Positions 4,180-39,885 of a DNA stretch of 64,000 bases are shown here, in pieces. The stretch is from Dehalococcoidia bacterium (GTDB taxonomy: Bacteria > Chloroflexota > Dehalococcoidia > SM23-28-2 > HRBIN24). The DNA lies in assembly GCA_034435615.1 (NCBI GenBank), contig DAOTWZ010000042.1, positions 1,936 through 65,935 of the forward strand, in the 5' to 3' direction. The position numbers and the translations under genes are program-made. Positions within the stretch are counted from its first letter, which is position 1; each line of letters opens with the position of its first letter. The notes under the pieces were generated by a model. It made no database searches and was not told the DNA's origin. It saw only the letters and a program-made list of their open reading frames with translations.

Positions 4180-4208
4180 TTGAAGGGGGGAGGCGAGGTG
4201 GTTAAGAT
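4180..4208 (+). promoter_or_regulatory. Sigma70-type promoter for tRNA-Arg
   Basis: TTGAAG (4180-85), 17 bp spacer, TAAGAT (4203-08), 22 bp upstream of the tRNA. Confidence 0.6.
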
Positions 4209-4230
4209 TAGGCTTGGGAATGCATCCCGC

Positions 4231-4307
4231 GCCCCCGTAGCTCAGTCGGATAGAGCGCCGGCCTCCGGAGCCGGAGACCGTGGGTTCGAGTCCCACCGGG
4301 GGTACCA
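4231..4307 (+). tRNA. tRNA-Arg(CCG)
   Basis: GCCCCCG/CGGGGGT acceptor stem, D arm TAGCTCAGTCGGATAGAGC, anticodon loop CTCCGGA, GGTTCGAGTCC T arm, encoded CCA. Confidence 0.95.
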
Positions 4308-4514
4308 GCGAGGCGAGCTCCTCCAGCGACCCCCGAGGCCAGGGCTGCCTCGTCCCGACCACCGCTGCAGGGAGCGCCCCCACCACCTAGCCCATACCCT
4401 GGCGGCAAAGGGCATACGGACTACCCCCGGCATCGCCCGCGCGCCCGCCTGGGCAGCGTGTCCCCTCCGGACGGCCCGCCGCTACAGGGGGAAGACGGGT
4501 CAGGCGCCAGGACG

Positions 4515-9696: not shown

Positions 9697-10595
9697 GCGG
9701 AGGCGGGCTGGAAGCGGTAGATCTCGCCCAGCACCTCCAGGAAGGCGAGGACGGGCCGCGGCCGGCGCCGGTTGCGCCGGTATATGAGGGCGATGGTGCG
9801 GCTGAGGGGGGCGGCGTCCACTATGGGCACCTCCACCAGCACCCCCAGCTCCAGCTCCCGCTCGATGGTGACGCGGGGCACCATGGCGATGCCCAGCCCC
9901 TCCTCCACCATGCGCTTGGTGGCCTCCAGGGAGTCCAGCTCCATGGCCACGTGGGGGACCAACCCCGCCTGGCGGAAGTAGGAGTGAATGAGGCCGAAGT
10001 AGCTGGAGCCGCGGTCGAACAGGATGAGGGGCTGGGTAGCCACCTCCTCCAGACGGGCCTCCCCTCTCTGGGCGAAGGAGTGGTCACGGGGCACCGCCAA
10101 GACTATCTCGTCCTCGTAGAGGGGGACTGTCTCCACCTCCGGGTGCTGGAGGGAGCGCACCAGGCCGGCCTGGACCTCGTCGCTCAGGACCATGCCCAGG
10201 ACCTGCTCAGAGCGGCCGGTGCGCACGGAGACGTTGATCCCGGGGAAGCGGCGGCGGAAGGCGTGCAGGATCTTGGGGAGGACGTAGGTGCTTATGGTGA
10301 GGGCAGAGCCCAGCCGCAGATGGCCCAGCCCCAGGCTGCGCACCTCCTCCACGGCGTCCCGCCCTTCCTTCACCACCTGAAGGATCTTCAGGGCGTGAGG
10401 CAGGAAGGCCTCGCCGGCGTCCGTCAAGCGAACGCCGCGGCCGCCCCGCTCGAAGAGCTCCTCGCCCAGCTCCCGCTCCAGGGACTGGATGCGGGCCGTC
10501 ACGGAGGGCTGGGTGAGCTGCAGGGCCTGGGCGGCACGGCTGAAGCTGAGCTGCTGGGCTACCTGCACGAAGGCCTCGATCTGACTCAGGTCCAT
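9693..10595 (-). CDS. LysR family transcriptional regulator
   Basis: MDLSQIEAFVQVAQQLSFSRAAQALQLTQPSVTARIQSLERELG HTH plus substrate-binding domain. Confidence 0.95.
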   Translation of the reverse strand: MDLSQIEAFVQVAQQLSFSRAAQALQLTQPSVTARIQSLERELGEELFERGGRGVRLTDAGEAFLPHALKILQVVKEGRDAVEEVRSLGLGHLRLGSALTISTYVLPKILHAFRRRFPGINVSVRTGRSEQVLGMVLSDEVQAGLVRSLQHPEVETVPLYEDEIVLAVPRDHSFAQRGEARLEEVATQPLILFDRGSSYFGLIHSYFRQAGLVPHVAMELDSLEATKRMVEEGLGIAMVPRVTIERELELGVLVEVPIVDAAPLSRTIALIYRRNRRRPRPVLAFLEVLGEIYRFQPASA

Positions 10596-11533: not shown

Positions 11534-11956
11534 GTGGACGAGGCGGGCCGCCCCTCCCTGGACGAGCTTCCCCGGGGCTACCGCTTCCCGCCCGTCACCT
11601 ACACCCTGGACCCTGACTGGGTGGCGGAATACCTGTCGGCGGTGGAGGACGCAGCCACCCCGGCCCTGGGGGCAGGGCTGGTGCCGGGGATGGCCCTGGC
11701 CACCCTGGCGGTGCGTGCCCTCCTGGAGCAGGTGCGGCTGCCGCCGGGCGCTGTCCACCTCTCCCAGGAGGTGCAGCTCCAGCGGGCCGTTCAGGCGGGG
11801 GAGAGGGTCACCGCCGAGGCCAGCATCGTCAGCCGGGGGGAGCGGCAGGGCTGGCTCCTCCTCACCATCGAGATGGCGGCCCGCGACGCCCGAGGAGAGC
11901 CCGTGATGACCGGCCGTGCCACCCTGGGGATGCCGGTGGAGGGCGCCACCCCATGA
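11534..11956 (+). CDS. MaoC/HadA-like hotdog protein without a catalytic motif
   Basis: Single hotdog fold (VHLSQEVQLQRAVQAGE); no D-x-N-P-x-H motif; overlaps the next gene by ATGA. Confidence 0.7.
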   Translation: MDEAGRPSLDELPRGYRFPPVTYTLDPDWVAEYLSAVEDAATPALGAGLVPGMALATLAVRALLEQVRLPPGAVHLSQEVQLQRAVQAGERVTAEASIVSRGERQGWLLLTIEMAARDARGEPVMTGRATLGMPVEGATP

Positions 11957-32355: not shown

Positions 32356-32428
32356 CTGGTGGGCCCGGGAGGATTCGAACCTCCAACCAACCGGTTATGA
32401 GCCGGCCGCTCTGCCGTTGAGCTACGGG
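32356..32428 (-). repeat. att copy: duplicated tRNA-Ile2 lacking its first 3 nt
   Basis: Identical to 39810-39882; the 5' end reads TCC instead of GGG, breaking the acceptor stem. Confidence 0.93.
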
Positions 32429-32499: not shown

Positions 32500-33390
32500 T
32501 TGGCCAGGGATGCCAACCGAGCGTCCGGTTGCCCGGCCCTCCTCAGGGGCTTCGCCCTCCACCTGGAGGCCCAGCGCCTCAGCCCCCGAACCCGCCAGCA
32601 CTACCTCCAGAGCGCCCGCCGCCTGCTGGCCTGGCTGGGGGAGGACCGTCACCCTGGGCGGCTCCGGCCAGGGGAGATGGCCGCCTTCCTCCAGGAAGCC
32701 TACCCCCAGAGGAGCGCCAAGACCCTCAGGGAGCACCTGCTGGCCCTCCGCCGCTTCTACCGCTGGCTCCAGGCCGAGGGCGAGGCCAGGAGCGACCCCA
32801 CCAGCTCCCTGAAGCTGCCCACCTTCCGGACGCCCCCCATGCCCGCCTACACCCCCGCCGAGGTGAAGCGCCTGCTGCTGGCCTGTGACCGTAGGAGCCG
32901 CCAGGGCCTCAGGGACTACGCCGCCCTCCTGGTCCTCTACGACACCGGCCTCCGGGCGGGCGAGCTGGTCTCCATGACCTGTGAGGGGCTGGACTGGGAG
33001 CGGGGAGCGGCCCAGGTGAGGGGGAAGACGGGAGCCAGAGAGGTGCCCCTGGGGGCGGTTGCCCTCCAGGCCCTGGAGCGCTACCTGAGGCGCTGGGGCA
33101 TCGAGTCTGGCCCCGTCTGGCGGGGGGAGCGAGGCCCCCTCAGCGAGAGCGGCCTCCTGCAAATGGTGAGGCGGCTCTCGGCGAGGGCGGGCGTCCCCCA
33201 CAAGGGGGTCCATGCCTTCCGTAGGGCGGCGGCCATCGAGATGAAGCGGGCGGGGATGAACGACTCCGACATCCTCCAGGTGCTGGGCTGGAAGTCCATC
33301 GCCATGCTCCGACGCTACACCCAGCAGGAGGCCCAGGCGCTGGCCTTCCAGGCCCACCGCCGCTTCTCCCCCGCCGACCGCCTGGGCTAG
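32500..33390 (+). CDS. Tyrosine recombinase/integrase
   Basis: LYDTGLRAGEL (R), GKTG (K), HAFRR (HxxR), VLGW, MLRRY (Y); SD GGGAGGTG, TTG start. Confidence 0.93.
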   Translation: MARDANRASGCPALLRGFALHLEAQRLSPRTRQHYLQSARRLLAWLGEDRHPGRLRPGEMAAFLQEAYPQRSAKTLREHLLALRRFYRWLQAEGEARSDPTSSLKLPTFRTPPMPAYTPAEVKRLLLACDRRSRQGLRDYAALLVLYDTGLRAGELVSMTCEGLDWERGAAQVRGKTGAREVPLGAVALQALERYLRRWGIESGPVWRGERGPLSESGLLQMVRRLSARAGVPHKGVHAFRRAAAIEMKRAGMNDSDILQVLGWKSIAMLRRYTQQEAQALAFQAHRRFSPADRLG

Positions 33391-35931: not shown

Positions 35932-36417
35932 TCAAGAATTATGGACTGGTATTCTTTGGATGGCCTCGGCTAGAGTCGTCGCCCTGGTCCGGCACGCCCA
36001 CCTGACATCGGAGCCTTTGACGCCTCCGCCCCCTGTCCTCTGGACCAGCCTCTCCCGCTCAAGCCTCTGGAGGGCAGCTCGTAGCTGGTGGGCAGGGACA
36101 TCTATGCCCGCCAGTCGCTTCAGCCACTGGCGTAGGCCCCGGATGGTGGTGGGCTTGCCCCCCAGTCGCCTCAGCCCCGCCAGCAGCAGCAAGTCCAAGG
36201 CTGGCAAGGCGAGGATGGAGGGTCCCCTGGCCAGCACTTCGGCGATGCTCTCGGCTATGAAGCTGCCCCTGGACGAGCGGCGGAGGTGGAGCAGCCTTCG
36301 GCACTCAGAGCAGGCGGTGACGACTACCGCCTCGATGCCGACGCCAGGGAGCCCACAGCACGGGCAGAGGGCGGGCAGGACCTCCTCGTGGTCGTCACTC
36401 CTCTGGCAGTCCATCAT
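35932..36417 (-). CDS. Element zinc-ribbon plus winged-HTH protein
   Basis: CPCC...CSEC then PTTIRGLRQWL...LRAALQRLERERLVQR...RW; ATGA overlap with the upstream gene. Confidence 0.65.
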   Translation of the reverse strand: MMDCQRSDDHEEVLPALCPCCGLPGVGIEAVVVTACSECRRLLHLRRSSRGSFIAESIAEVLARGPSILALPALDLLLLAGLRRLGGKPTTIRGLRQWLKRLAGIDVPAHQLRAALQRLERERLVQRTGGGGVKGSDVRWACRTRATTLAEAIQRIPVHNS

Positions 36418-36914
36418 GGCTTCTCCTCCTGGGGCAGGAAGGGCTTCAGCTCAGGCAGCCGGTGGACCAGCTCCTCCTTCGGCACCCGTAGCGTGAGGGC
36501 ACCGTCCCGCTCCTCGGCCAGCAAGTAGACGAGGGCCTCGCCCATGTCCAGGAGGCTGCCCGTCACGGGGACGCCCCATCTCTCCGCCGCCTCCTGGCAG
36601 AGTTCTCGGGCCAGCCCCTGGACCGCTCGCCAGGTCCATCGCCTGCCATCCCACCCGACCAGCACAGCCAGGACCATGCAGGCGTGGCGGGTCGCCTCGG
36701 CGAGGTGGCGTAGCTCCAGGAGGAAGCTCTCGAACTCGCCCTTGGAGCGCCTGGCCTGGGCAGCCAGAGTCCGAAGCCTCGCCTCTACCCAGCGGGCGGG
36801 AGACTCCTCGGCCTCCTCCTCCTCGCCATAGAGACCGGGACAGCCCTCGGCTACGGCGGTCAGGAGCCCCCGCCCTGCCGCCTCTAGGCTACGGACCAGG
36901 GCGAGGGCAGCCAC
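36414..36914 (-). CDS. Element helical protein, possibly the C-terminal part of Rep
   Basis: GTG start without SD; the frame is open a further 108 codons upstream, to 37238. Confidence 0.6.
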   Translation of the reverse strand: MAALALVRSLEAAGRGLLTAVAEGCPGLYGEEEEAEESPARWVEARLRTLAAQARRSKGEFESFLLELRHLAEATRHACMVLAVLVGWDGRRWTWRAVQGLARELCQEAAERWGVPVTGSLLDMGEALVYLLAEERDGALTLRVPKEELVHRLPELKPFLPQEEKP

Positions 36915-37099
36915 CAGCAGGCGAGAGGAGAGGTCACACCGGGCGGGATAGGACTCGGGCGCCCCATCCCCTACCTCCCCCAGCGCCGCCTCCAGTCGCC
37001 CCAGGGGTCCAGCCAGGGCGGGGCGGGTATATCCTCTCTCCGTAGTCCTCGACTCTCCGCCCAGAGGGGCAGAGGACGGTGCTCCCCCTTGGTCGGGGT

Positions 37100-37155
37100 G
37101 CAGGGGCTCCGCCCCTGCAGTCGTCGGGGGGTCAGAGGGGGGCAGAGCCCCCCTC
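37100..37155. repeat. Tandem GC-rich triloop hairpins
   Basis: GCAGGGGC-TCC-GCCCCTGC (37100-18) and GAGGGGGGC-AGA-GCCCCCCTC (37135-55). Confidence 0.8.
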
Positions 37156-37197
37156 GGCTCAGGATGAGATGTCGGTGCTGCCGGGTGCTCTGGAACA

Positions 37198-37719
37198 TCA
37201 TCTCTGGATAGGACATCTGGATATGGGTGAACTCTGCTTCACCGGGGTGGTGAACTCTGCTTCACCGGGGTGGTGAACTGGAGTGCACCGGGGTGGTGAA
37301 GTGTGCTTCACCGGTGAACTCTGCTTCACCCCCTGGTAGACCTCGGTCCTGATGCCTCGCTGGGGCGTCTGGCGGTCGGGGCTCCGGTAGGTGGCGAGGT
37401 AGCCCAGCTCGGCGAGCCGTCGGAGGCTGTCCTTGGCCTGGCGGGGGGAGATGCCTGCCGCCCGGGCGAGGGTGGTGCTGGAGGCGAAGGTGGTCCTGGA
37501 GCGGCGGTCGGAGTAGGCGAGGATGAGGCCCAAGAGGCGGAGGTCCGAGAGGCGAAGCCGTCCGTCCAGGAGGGCGGCCACAGGGAAGCGGACCCACTTC
37601 CGTCCCGGTGCCCTGGGCTGCCTCCTGCCGCCCTTCTCTTGGCTCCCGGCCTCGGCGATGGGCCGGGTCTGGGCCAGCTCCTCTTTCGGTCGGCTTCCGT
37701 TTGTGTTAACCTTCTGCAT
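37198..37719 (-). CDS. Putative replication initiator (N-terminal winged HTH) with internal iterons
   Basis: LRLSDLRLLGLILAY...TFASSTTLARAAGISPRQAKDSLRRLAELGYL; SD AAAGGAGG; repeats in the 3' part of the gene. Confidence 0.8.
   Translation of the reverse strand: MQKVNTNGSRPKEELAQTRPIAEAGSQEKGGRRQPRAPGRKWVRFPVAALLDGRLRLSDLRLLGLILAYSDRRSRTTFASSTTLARAAGISPRQAKDSLRRLAELGYLATYRSPDRQTPQRGIRTEVYQGVKQSSPVKHTSPPRCTPVHHPGEAEFTTPVKQSSPISRCPIQR
37226..37330. repeat. Five palindromic 18-bp iterons GGTGAA-N6-TTCACC (putative origin)
   Basis: Units at 37226, 37249, 37272, 37295 (23-bp period) and 37313. Confidence 0.88.
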
Positions 37720-38543: not shown

Positions 38544-39533
38544 CTAGCGGCTTAGACGCTGCCGTAGGAGCCTCAAGGCTTCCTGGAGGCGGCGGGAGAC
38601 GGTGGGCTGGGAGAGTCGGAGGCGGCGGGCGACCTCCTGCTGGGAGAGCCCCTCCACGAGCGCCAGCCTGACGATGGCCCTCATCTCTTCGCTCAGAGTG
38701 GCCAGGGCCTCCTGAAGGTCCACCTTCAGCAGCACGACGTCCTCCTCCTGGACCGCCAGGGCGGGGGCCGAGGGCTGGGGATGCCCTTCTTCCTGGCCCT
38801 CCTCATGCAGGGGGGCTATCTGCCTCTTGGAGCGGGCGCTGTGGATGCCCCTGCCTAGCTCTTGTCTGAGCAGGCCCCTCACTCGCTCCAGGACGTGGGC
38901 TTCCGGCCCCAGGGCGGGCAGGGGCTGCCCCTCGACGACCAGGAAGCGGCGGGGGATGCCGGACCGGTCACGTCTAGCCTCAAGCTGGCTCAGGCCCCAG
39001 GCAGACTGGACGAGGGCGGTGGCGTCTTCGCCTCGCCTGACCAGTTGCTCCAGGAGAGGCCCAGTCCGGGGATGGCGATGGATGGCCTGCCGTAGGTCCT
39101 GGCCGGCGATGTGGTCCCAGCCTGCTTCGGCGGCCAGGGCTCGCTCCATCGTCCAGAAGATGAGGGCAGGCAGTCGAAGGGCCAGGGCGGTGCCGTTGCC
39201 CAGGGGGGCTATCGCCAGCCGCTCGGCCAGGTCCACATAGCAGGCGATGAAGGGAGGCGGGGCCTCGATGTCCCCAGCCTGCACCTGGCCCAGGGCTACT
39301 TGCCGTTGCAGCCCCAGGGCGTCCACCTCGCCTTCGCCCTTCAGCAGGACCCTCACCTGGTCATCGAACCTTGGCTCCAGGTCGCCCTCCTGGTGGACCA
39401 GAAGGGCGTAGGCCCAGCACCCCATCACCTGGCGGTGGAGGGCTTCCGCCTCGGCCCGTAGGGCAGGGGGGTAGTAGGCGGGGTTGCCCCGGCTCTCCTC
39501 GACGAAGGCGACGATGTTCTGCCACACGTCCAC
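38544..39533 (-). CDS. Element protein with a C-terminal sigma-70 region-4 HTH
   Basis: LQEALATLSEEMRAIVRLALVEGLSQQEVARRLRLSQPTVSRRLQEALRLLR; GTG 39533 after GGAGGG. Confidence 0.75.
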   Translation of the reverse strand: MDVWQNIVAFVEESRGNPAYYPPALRAEAEALHRQVMGCWAYALLVHQEGDLEPRFDDQVRVLLKGEGEVDALGLQRQVALGQVQAGDIEAPPPFIACYVDLAERLAIAPLGNGTALALRLPALIFWTMERALAAEAGWDHIAGQDLRQAIHRHPRTGPLLEQLVRRGEDATALVQSAWGLSQLEARRDRSGIPRRFLVVEGQPLPALGPEAHVLERVRGLLRQELGRGIHSARSKRQIAPLHEEGQEEGHPQPSAPALAVQEEDVVLLKVDLQEALATLSEEMRAIVRLALVEGLSQQEVARRLRLSQPTVSRRLQEALRLLRQRLSR

Positions 39534-39810
39534 GCTGGCCCCTCCGTGGGCGGGAGGGCTGGGGCTGCCACACCGGGAGGCCAGAGATGCCGGCGGGGCG
39601 CCCCGGTCCCTCTCGCCCACCAGGGTAGCCCATCCCCTGGGCCTGGAGCAAGTGGCGGCTTCGAACGTATGTTGCCTGGACGGGGGCACGAGGGGCCTGG
39701 CATCATGGGGGCTGTCCTGGGGCGAGGGACTGAGCGGCATTGTGGGCAGGGGGCCTGACTGAGCGCCCGGCTTGCCGGTGCTGGGGCAGGAAGCCGCTCT
39801 CGGTCTGCTC

Positions 39811-39885
39811 TGGTGGGCCCGGGAGGATTCGAACCTCCAACCAACCGGTTATGAGCCGGCCGCTCTGCCGTTGAGCTACGGGCCC
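39811..39885 (-). tRNA. tRNA-Ile2 (CAT anticodon, lysidine type), intact copy
   Basis: GGGCCCG/CGGGCCC acceptor stem with C4 and C5, loop CTCATAA, A73, CCA; paired G1-C72 excludes initiator tRNA; elongator Met is not formally excluded. Confidence 0.85.

Follow-up and report, generated by a model that had tools for sequence, protein, structure and literature searches.

Does a replication gene that ends early in an integrated element encode a longer protein by ribosomal frameshifting, or is the gene broken? We analysed a 64,000-nucleotide stretch of DNA from a Dehalococcoidia bacterium (GenBank assembly GCA_034435615.1, contig DAOTWZ010000042.1, positions 1,936 to 65,935), referred to here as the window. 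It carries a 7,454-bp element bounded by two perfect 73-nt direct repeats. Within this element, the frame of a predicted replication initiator (Rep) stops a few codons beyond an array of repeated sites, and the +1 frame runs on into a 166-amino-acid (aa) open reading frame (ORF). An earlier reading of the DNA by its letters (hereafter the sequence-only reading) had proposed that a +1 frameshift at CCC-AUA extends Rep, and that the output of full-length protein could respond to tRNA-Ile2. We consider it probable that the locus is instead one Rep gene of the phage lambda O type, with its origin inside the coding sequence, in which a non-programmed insertion of 1 nt, where the last repeat (iteron) meets an AT-rich tract, has disrupted the frame.

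Two open frames overlap at the end of ORF1

The break lies near the 3' end of ORF1, on the minus strand:

37198-37719, minus strand: ORF1, the presumed N-terminal half of the Rep initiator, 173 aa, with the Shine-Dalgarno sequence (SD) GGAGG (pairing free energy, dG, -14.8) and the stop codon TGA 37200-37198.
37222-37230, minus strand: frame-break site TCA CCC ATA (TCA 37230-37228, CCC 37227-37225, ATA 37224-37222).

Around the break the minus strand reads GTG AAG CAG AGT TCA CCC ATA TCC AGA TGT CCT ATC CAG AGA TGA. We refer to the ORF1 frame as f0, to the +1 frame as f1 and to the third frame as f2. The description of the frames in the sequence-only reading was accurate. Rep stops soon after TCA CCC ATA: in f0 seven codons follow CCC-ATA, and then TGA 37200-37198. 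In f1, the stop codon TGA 37241-37239 is followed by 274 sense codons, so that the frame is free of stops from 37238 until TGA 36416-36414; its translation (HPYPDVLSRDDVPEHPAAPTSHPEP) leads into the 166-aa ORF. A slip from CCC to CCA would give a product of 165 + 269 = 434 aa, the size that had been predicted. Both frames are open only between 37238 and 37201 (38 nt), and in this zone CCC-A at 37227-37224 is the sole site at which the P-site codon could re-pair well in the +1 frame.

The sequence-only reading had also warned that long open frames are common at this GC content, and rightly so. At 70% GC, a run of 108 stop-free codons before the first f1 start has a probability of ~0.07 or 0.5, according to which off-frame stop frequency of host genes is used; our own estimate from base composition is ~0.13. 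It is the comparative and structural evidence described below, not the open frame itself, that raises f1 above chance.

ORF1 contains a predicted DNA-binding domain and five iterons

Four features within and just beyond ORF1 point to a replication origin:

37396-37560, minus strand: HTH_36 (winged-helix type) DNA-binding domain (Pfam), ORF1 residues 54-108.
37226-37330: five 18-bp dyad iterons GGTGAA-N6-TTCACC, ORF1 codons 130-165.
37272-37289, minus strand: degenerate third iteron, GGTGCACTCCAGTTCACC, with TGC instead of the consensus TGA.
37187-37224: AT-rich stretch CATATCCAGATGTCCTATCCAGAGATGATGTTCCAGAG, adjoining the iterons on their 3' side and containing TCCAGA three times.

ORF1 matches Pfam HTH_36 (PF13730) with an E value of 7e-8, over the gathering score, and it also matches PHROG replication-initiation families, including 'O-like' ones. 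Judged by these matches, ORF1 is the predicted HTH_36 DNA-binding domain of a replication initiator, and it has the N-terminal helix-turn-helix (HTH) origin-binding domain of a lambda-O-type protein.

The iterons occupy positions 37313-37330, 37295-37312, 37272-37289 (the degenerate copy), 37249-37266 and 37226-37243, with spacings of 18, 23, 23 and 23 bp. All five iteron sites in the 64-kb window are found here, where 0.03 would be expected. The initiator's own coding sequence thus contains tandem dyad-symmetric iterons. Since 23 is not a multiple of 3, consecutive iterons are read in differing phases, and f0 translates them as VKQSSP, VKHTSP, PRCTPVH, GEAEFT and VKQSSP. The consensus iteron has a TGA in one phase; f0 reads only the copy at 37272-37289 in that phase, and there the codon is TGC. 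Hence, f0 is the only frame that is open across all five iterons.

The 40-nt segment starting at 37194 has a GC content of 42.5%, as against a mean of 70%, and is among the lowest 0.28% of 40-nt segments. The AT-rich stretch, a candidate DNA-unwinding element, includes the ATA codon as well as the f0 stop. By analogy with phage lambda O, the iterons plus this AT-rich tract would together form a putative origin within the initiator gene, and the sequence of ORF1 suggests that its product may bind the iterons.

The reading frame is continuous in all 50 related loci assessed

A comparison of homologues with continuous and with split frames had been suggested as the way to decide the matter. A homology search with the fused 434-aa product gave no match, and searches with ORF1, and with the 274-aa f1 translation against 1.84 billion representatives, returned only the query itself. 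When the HTH part was back-translated and scanned against genome and viral contigs, nothing was found, nor did a tblastn search of plasmids and phages with the fused protein find anything; a sequence search of the PDB gave chance matches only. Because these protein searches were empty, the test could not be made with close protein homologues, and we used a search for the DNA pattern of the iterons instead.

We searched public contigs for two dyads with the half-sites and the spacing seen in the window. Matches came from 50 viral contigs, Bifidobacterium prophages and other genomes; about 75 matches in Streptomyces were set aside as a different, two-site class (pairs of GGTGAAT-N4-ATTCACC). A stricter pattern returned two metagenome contigs, L134 and L135. 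In the relatives the array lies within one continuous ORF of ~220-470 aa, in most at about residues 90-180, and all nine relatives that were scanned have an HTH_36 N-terminus. Their repeats are translated as GExxFT and VKxxSP, as in the window. Similarity of ORF1 to these proteins is weak (E values between 1e-5 and 1e-3, the database comprising 46 entries), but the Rep of L135 (P0003) is 41% identical to ORF1 in an alignment of 108 aa (E=2e-14) that extends from the HTH across the repeats as far as ..FTxPVKQSSP. L135 is the closest relative: it has the same 18-bp first spacing, and 85 further residues follow in frame after its last iteron. A profile built from ORF1 and the L135 protein found only P0001 and P0003.

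We then asked how far the frame extends beyond the array, limiting the count to the 50 loci in which it is not cut by a contig end. Clustering at 50% identity puts these loci into 10 groups, with L134 in addition, about 11 lineages in all. The frame is continuous in every one of the 50, and beyond the last perfect iteron it extends for a median of 167.5 codons (range 85-191); f0 of the window continues for 8. Thus, none of the relatives needs a shift. The window copy lacks the single continuous frame through the origin into a C-terminal domain that marks this group, and it counts as a disrupted member only.

The relatives also indicate where the frame of the window should go. Nearly all lineages leave the last iteron in the VKxxSP phase, and the window does likewise, with VKQSSP. 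After the last iteron several of the relatives continue with S-P-x-P-S/D, for example KPSQEPSIEPS, NPSFNHH, DPSLEPPIDPS or EPSYRTITEPS. At this point f1 of the window reads S-P-Y-P-D, continuing as VLSRDDVPEHP, and f0 reads ISRCPIQR-stop. An AT-rich repeat tract occurs at the matching position in the relatives. Their C-terminal domains are modular, differing from that of the window and from each other (L113, for instance, has DnaB_2). One locus on the minus strand of L129 (~11758-11900) encodes a Bifidobacterium-type Rep that is near-identical to intact ones apart from a GAA to TAA change among the iterons (TP-stop-TG instead of TPETG). Such genes therefore do decay in integrated copies.

The class GGTGAA-N6-TTCACC with a 23-bp period is common to HTH_36 initiators of at least 11 lineages (L014, L031, L076 and L084-L135), in contigs with GC contents from 46% to 70%. 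The array is always intragenic and is translated as GExxFT or VKxxSP, and its half-sites are far better conserved than the proteins, which are less than 50% identical between clusters. A literature search for the GGTGAA-N6-TTCACC iteron motif found no description of it among the papers searched. In L135 (~4200-4385, on the plus strand, the complement of the Rep coding strand), six iterons are followed by four AGCAACTCA repeats in an AT-rich tract and then by the inverted pair CGACCGGTTGCATTTTGCGACCGGTCGCAAAATGCGACCGGTT; this pair may be a second origin element and has no counterpart in the window. In the Streptomyces matches (L002-L083; ~75 species), two GGTGAAT-N4-ATTCACC dyads are set 23 bp apart, and their centres are often reverse complements of each other. 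The pair looks like a conserved operator of a different system.

The +1 frame has the predicted makeup of a linker and a C-terminal domain

Downstream of the break, f1 can be divided into two parts:

37023-37221, minus strand: Pro/Ser/Asp/Glu-rich stretch of ~67 codons in f1, predicted to be disordered, with no start codon and with weak, ambiguous codon statistics.
36414-37022, minus strand: predicted all-helical C-terminal domain of ~200 aa in f1, with no homologue detected.

The annotated 166-aa ORF, starting at GTG 36914, is the 3' part of the C-terminal domain. In the 108 codons of f1 from 37238 to this GTG there is no ATG, GTG or TTG. At GTG 36914 itself there is no Shine-Dalgarno pairing (duplex dG +1.4 kcal/mol, compared with -10 to -15 for most neighbouring genes), in agreement with the earlier statement that this ORF has no SD of its own. 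The f1 coding signal begins ~39 codons upstream of GTG 36914. A single-sequence AlphaFold (AF2) model has low overall confidence (predicted local distance difference test, pLDDT, 58). Its best helix, residues 97-132 (pLDDT 81-85), spans GTG 36914, which is residue 109 of the 274-aa f1 translation, and a second helix, residues 73-89, lies upstream of it. Foldseek searches with this low-confidence model of the C-terminal domain returned nothing at E<=0.001.

The acidic f1 linker abounds in Pro, Ser, Thr, Asp and Glu, and like the linkers of the relatives it has no Cys or Trp; polar, small or Pro residues make up 78% of it, and 69% of the relatives' linkers. The peptide encoded in f2 is basic and contains Cys and Trp. 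We rejected an 81-aa ORF in this frame (37216-36971) as a real gene; it has no SD, and its product has the basic, Cys- and Trp-containing composition just described.

The DNA of the linker between 37080 and 37160 (minus strand) is dense with G6, C6, C6, G4, C4 and G5 runs, and AGGGGGGCTCTGCCCCCCT within it is able to form a 7-bp hairpin. Runs of this kind are prone to indels, which bears on any claim about the reading frame there.

A probable single disrupted rep gene

It is very probable that a single Rep protein of ~434 aa has ORF1 and the 166-aa ORF as its halves. The reasons are the exit from the last iteron in the VKxxSP phase, the likeness of the f1 linker to those of the relatives, the lack of a start codon and SD for the downstream ORF, the predicted helices across and upstream of its GTG, and the codon signal that begins upstream of it. 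In part, then, the sequence-only reading is supported: the relatives and the linker match indicate that ORF1 and the 166-aa ORF are parts of one gene, with the frame changing between SSP and YPD. A programmed +1 shift is not supported. Instead, the caveat in that reading, that a 1-nt insertion would look the same, now appears to be the better explanation.

In the design suggested by the relatives, the HTH_36 domain at the N-terminus would bind the iterons. The five iterons would double as coding sequence for VKxxSP and GExxFT peptides, and the AT-rich unwinding tract would double as the start of the acidic, proline-rich linker. The C-terminal helical domain would presumably recruit host replication proteins. 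One extra base where the last iteron meets the AT-rich tract would break this frame, leaving ...TCA CCC A before the continuation TAT CCA GAT... Ordinary translation would then yield just the 173-aa DNA-binding fragment, and the C-terminal domain would have no start of its own. Spontaneous slippage at CCC-A, at most ~1%, may leak a trace of full-length Rep; nothing indicates that such a leak is selected or regulated. Origin function, the role of the C-terminal domain and the mutational cause of the break are all inferred. As to that cause, a real mutation in the integrated element seems to us likelier than an assembly error, with close to an even chance of being correct.

Several observations weigh against a single disrupted gene. 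The element otherwise appears young and intact, with perfect 73-nt attachment repeats, an intact integrase and neighbouring genes with good SDs, and therefore a disabling mutation would have to be recent. The break coincides with CCC-A, a sequence that is prone to shifting in vitro (PMC4519876). A CTG at 36983 with GGAGG 5 nt upstream (dG -10.4) is a weak alternative start for the downstream ORF. Neither half has a close homologue, so the claim of one protein rests on architecture rather than on an aligned full-length relative. Finally, codon log-odds for the first 49 codons after the break, from a model trained on 31 host genes, are -0.92 per codon in f1 and +0.44 in f2. We give this last result, the only one contrary to f1, less weight because the codons are few and a route through f2, which stops at 36971, needs a second shift. 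A low f1 score would also be expected if an unwinding element has to stay AT-rich while coding, as A or T would then fill wobble positions in the true frame; they do so at 9 of the first 14 in f1, which lowers its score and raises that of a neighbouring frame. A plot of third-position GC alone is misleading in a linker rich in Pro, Gly and Ala.

Two genes or an assembly artefact as possible alternatives

We next considered that the locus comprises two genuine genes, a 173-aa origin-binding initiator, its tail running through the iterons to the next stop, and a separate downstream protein starting at GTG 36914 or at the upstream CTG, whose frames overlap by chance. A stop-free extension of 108 codons is not rare at 70% GC (P ~0.07-0.5), and the codon signal from 37224 to 37030 is weak or ambiguous. 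A split is conceivable, since the C-terminal domains of the relatives are modular and unrelated, and the C-terminal ORF has no homologues that could show a fusion. The CTG with its GGAGG would supply a start, although to our knowledge CTG starts are very rare in bacteria. This layout is found in 0/50 relatives, however, and no canonical start with an SD is present. Predicted helices lie upstream of and across the GTG, and the f1 linker resembles those of the relatives and carries on S-P-x-P-S/D right at the break. A promoter and terminator scan found no such site between the two ORFs. We therefore regard two genes as unlikely.

Alternatively, the break could be solely an artefact of assembly or sequencing, the true sequence being one base shorter (for example CC for CCC, or AT for ATAT) and the gene intact. 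Consensus sequences are classically prone to a 1-nt indel beside a short run of C, and G6 and C6 runs abound in the downstream linker. The rest of the element looks intact, and the source is a draft assembly in which the longest contig with the protein is 76 kb. Both proteins are on the NCBI record, and the 166-aa ORF is also on the Logan record. The Logan contig L001, assembled independently from run SRR9001935, matches the window base for base across 37255-35898 (1,358 bp), including CCCATA, though it was possibly built from the same reads. This agreement makes an assembler-specific error unlikely; an error shared through the same reads would not show up in it. A run of three bases in a non-repetitive context is rarely miscalled in a short-read consensus, and no other clearly split gene was seen in the window by a screen that is noisy, as antisense frames also score. 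The chances that an artefact is the sole cause seem to us small.

A possible programmed +1 frameshift

The +1 shift at CCC-AUA suggested by the sequence-only reading could be a programmed one, in which peptidyl-tRNA-Pro would re-pair from CCC to CCA while the A site awaits tRNA-Ile2. Such a shift would set the ratio of the 173-aa fragment to the 434-aa Rep, possibly in a manner sensitive to tRNA-Ile2 or its lysidine. The geometry suits it: f0 and f1 overlap only from 37238 to 37201, with CCC-A as the single good re-pairing site. Production of a DNA-binding fragment together with a fusion protein is a known regulatory logic, as in the IS1 and IS3 transposases. That the element is otherwise intact, and that the Logan contig agrees on the sequence, also speak for it. 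The statement that CCC-N codons are +1-slippery is in line with published work, in which CCC-A gave the fastest shift with native tRNA-Pro(UGG) on stalled ribosomes in vitro, and shifting at the most shift-prone position, the second codon position, reached ~1% (PMC4519876). The slipperiness of CCC-A in vitro counts in favour of a programmed event.

Conservation points the other way. The shift is needed by none of the 50 related loci in ~11 lineages; neither the shift site nor the two-frame layout is conserved, and L135, the closest, is continuous. Many relatives have TCA CCC followed by AAA, AAT, GAT or GAA just past the last repeat. This indicates that the CCC-purine context is inherited from the flank of the repeat and did not evolve for slippage. 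An insertion of 1 nt anywhere within the dozen codons that follow would give rise to the same apparent slippery site.

No features that would stimulate a shift were found either. By codon usage, which is only a proxy for decoding speed, ATA is not slowly decoded: among 31 host genes in the window, Ile is encoded by ATC 268 times, by ATA 67 times and by ATT 13 times. ATA thus accounts for 67/8886 codons (7.5 per 1000) and 19% of Ile, and is five times commoner than ATT although third-position GC is ~90%. Since ATA is the second Ile codon, the tRNA that reads it must be well supplied in the host. ATA also occurs eight times in the element's own genes. That the codon is not rare speaks against a stalled A site, as does the presence of CCC-ATA in frame in an ordinary host gene at 9827 (2.4 expected). 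No SD-like element lies 3 nt upstream of CCC-ATA in GCAGAGTTCA; the nearest is GGTGA in the last iteron, at a distance of 11 nt upstream that is linked to -1 shifting and not to +1 shifting. Shuffled sequences fold as stably as the RNA downstream of the site (z = -0.77). Programmed +1 sites are, as far as we know, very rare in bacteria. Taken with the state of the tRNA gene described below, these results lead us to consider a programmed shift improbable.

A related proposal is that the break is itself functional, with the fragment silencing the origin or excluding related elements and a low, conditional slip at CCC-AUA giving the full-length initiator. If true, this would be the first recoded replication initiator of its kind, with Rep sensitive to decoding by tRNA-Pro or tRNA-Ile2. 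The arguments for and against a programmed shift are those just given, and we rate this version as a long shot too.

Least probable is a doubly shifted pseudogene, passing from f0 to f2 at the last iteron and from f2 to f1 near 37075 by two separate 1-nt deletions. Codon log-odds do favour f2 (+0.44) over f1 (-0.92) in 37224-37075, and f2 is open from ~37273 to 36971. But two events are needed rather than one, the f2 peptide is basic, has Cys and Trp, resembles no relative's linker and does not carry on S-P-x-P-S/D, and a preference for f2 is the expected side effect if AT-richness sits at the wobble positions of f1; we consider this very improbable. Transcriptional slippage was rejected, there being no A or T run.

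The element leaves its target tRNA gene intact

The ends of the element and the genes that define it are as follows:

39811-39885, minus strand: tRNA gene with anticodon CAT, the integration target; a G1-C72 pair, hence non-initiator.
39810-39882: attachment repeat overlapping the tRNA gene, perfect 73-nt direct repeat.
32356-32428: second copy of the attachment repeat, a partial tRNA duplicate, perfect 73-nt direct repeat.
32500-33390, plus strand: tyrosine recombinase (integrase), 296 aa; Phage_integrase E=4e-28, HxxR and Y motifs present.

An integrase gene is thus accompanied by direct repeats that duplicate part of a tRNA gene. The tRNA has G1-C72, C4-G69 and C5-G68, which would fit Ile2 by the E. 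coli determinants for TilS. In BLAST searches of annotated E. coli genomes and phages, Ile2 could not be told apart from elongator Met, and the tRNA may be either. Whatever its identity, integration leaves the gene intact, with 73 of 75 bases perfectly duplicated. Nothing ties the state of the element to the supply of the tRNA. This speaks against a programmed shift that senses that supply. The suggestion that Rep output responds to tRNA-Ile2 therefore found no support: ATA is common, the tRNA gene is intact and none of the 50 relatives needs a shift.

The attachment repeat is unusually long, covering 73/75 tRNA bases with 100% identity, so that the far end of the element has a near-whole second tRNA copy. 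ARAGORN did not call this copy (32356-32428) as a gene.

Besides the integrase, the element contains the rep module, a 398-aa protein and several small ORFs without family matches. The 398-aa protein (38544-39740, minus strand), beside the tRNA gene, is like a sigma-70 region-4 or extracytoplasmic function (ECF) protein at its C-terminus only (residues ~333-394); the first 330 residues have no family match, and its ATG has no SD (dG -2.5). A 161-aa ORF (35932-36417, minus strand) begins at an ATG that shares bases (ATGA) with the stop codon of the C-terminal Rep frame, and a GGAGGAG of its own precedes it. Its matches, to zinc-ribbon and GntR-like winged-helix (wHTH) families, are weak. It lies in the position of lambda gene P, and no similarity to helicase loaders was seen.

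Comparison with known systems

In annotation, a single disrupted rep gene that contains an origin should replace the separate 173-aa and 166-aa ORFs. More widely, the occurrence of GGTGAA-N6-TTCACC every 23 bp offers a quick way to find such origins by their DNA across phage lineages and hosts. A truncated origin-binding fragment in an otherwise intact element is also a candidate for replication silencing or exclusion.

The nearest known systems are HTH_36 Reps from a metagenome contig (Ga0190363_1001549, which is L135/P0003), IMG/VR contigs (L084-L133) and Bifidobacterium prophages (L014, L031). They share with the window the half-sites and 23-bp period of the iterons, their position after HTH_36, the GExxFT and VKxxSP motifs, mostly the exit phase, and the AT-rich tract. 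Unlike the window, they remain in frame for 85-191 codons beyond the last iteron. The 'HTH domain-containing protein' of Bifidobacterium phage PMBT6 is a related Rep with a related layout but a different dyad, GGTGACA..TGTCACC, in intragenic repeats spaced ~22-23 bp apart. Relatives of the same iteron class as the window are 27.6% identical to Klebsiella phage proteins annotated 'DNA replication protein O', whose genes are followed by a P gene and contain intragenic dyad repeats 22-24 bp apart.

Known frameshift sites are less similar. As in CCC-N slippage, the P-site CCC of the window can re-pair, to CCA, in the manner of the prfB +1 site (CUU-UGA, with an upstream SD). Unlike at prfB, the A-site codon of the window is neither a stop nor rare, and no SD lies 3 nt upstream; unlike at bacterial +1 frameshift sites, the arrangement is not conserved in relatives.

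The origin of phage lambda consists of a dyad-symmetric iteron array followed by an AT-rich tract in the middle of gene O, where it is translated as an inter-domain linker (PMC7466680). The window resembles lambda O in having an N-terminal DNA-binding domain, and iterons and an AT-rich tract inside the gene of the initiator. It differs in that its frame is broken after the last iteron, its five iterons have another sequence and no known domain is related to its C-terminal one. There is no P-like gene after rep, and the carrier, unlike lambdoid modules, is an element of 7.45 kb that is integrated in a tRNA gene of a 70% GC host and has no recognised virion genes. The evidence points to a familiar design, a lambda-O-style initiator with the origin in its gene, that has probably suffered a simple frame break, rather than to a rare +1 recoding site wired to a tRNA.

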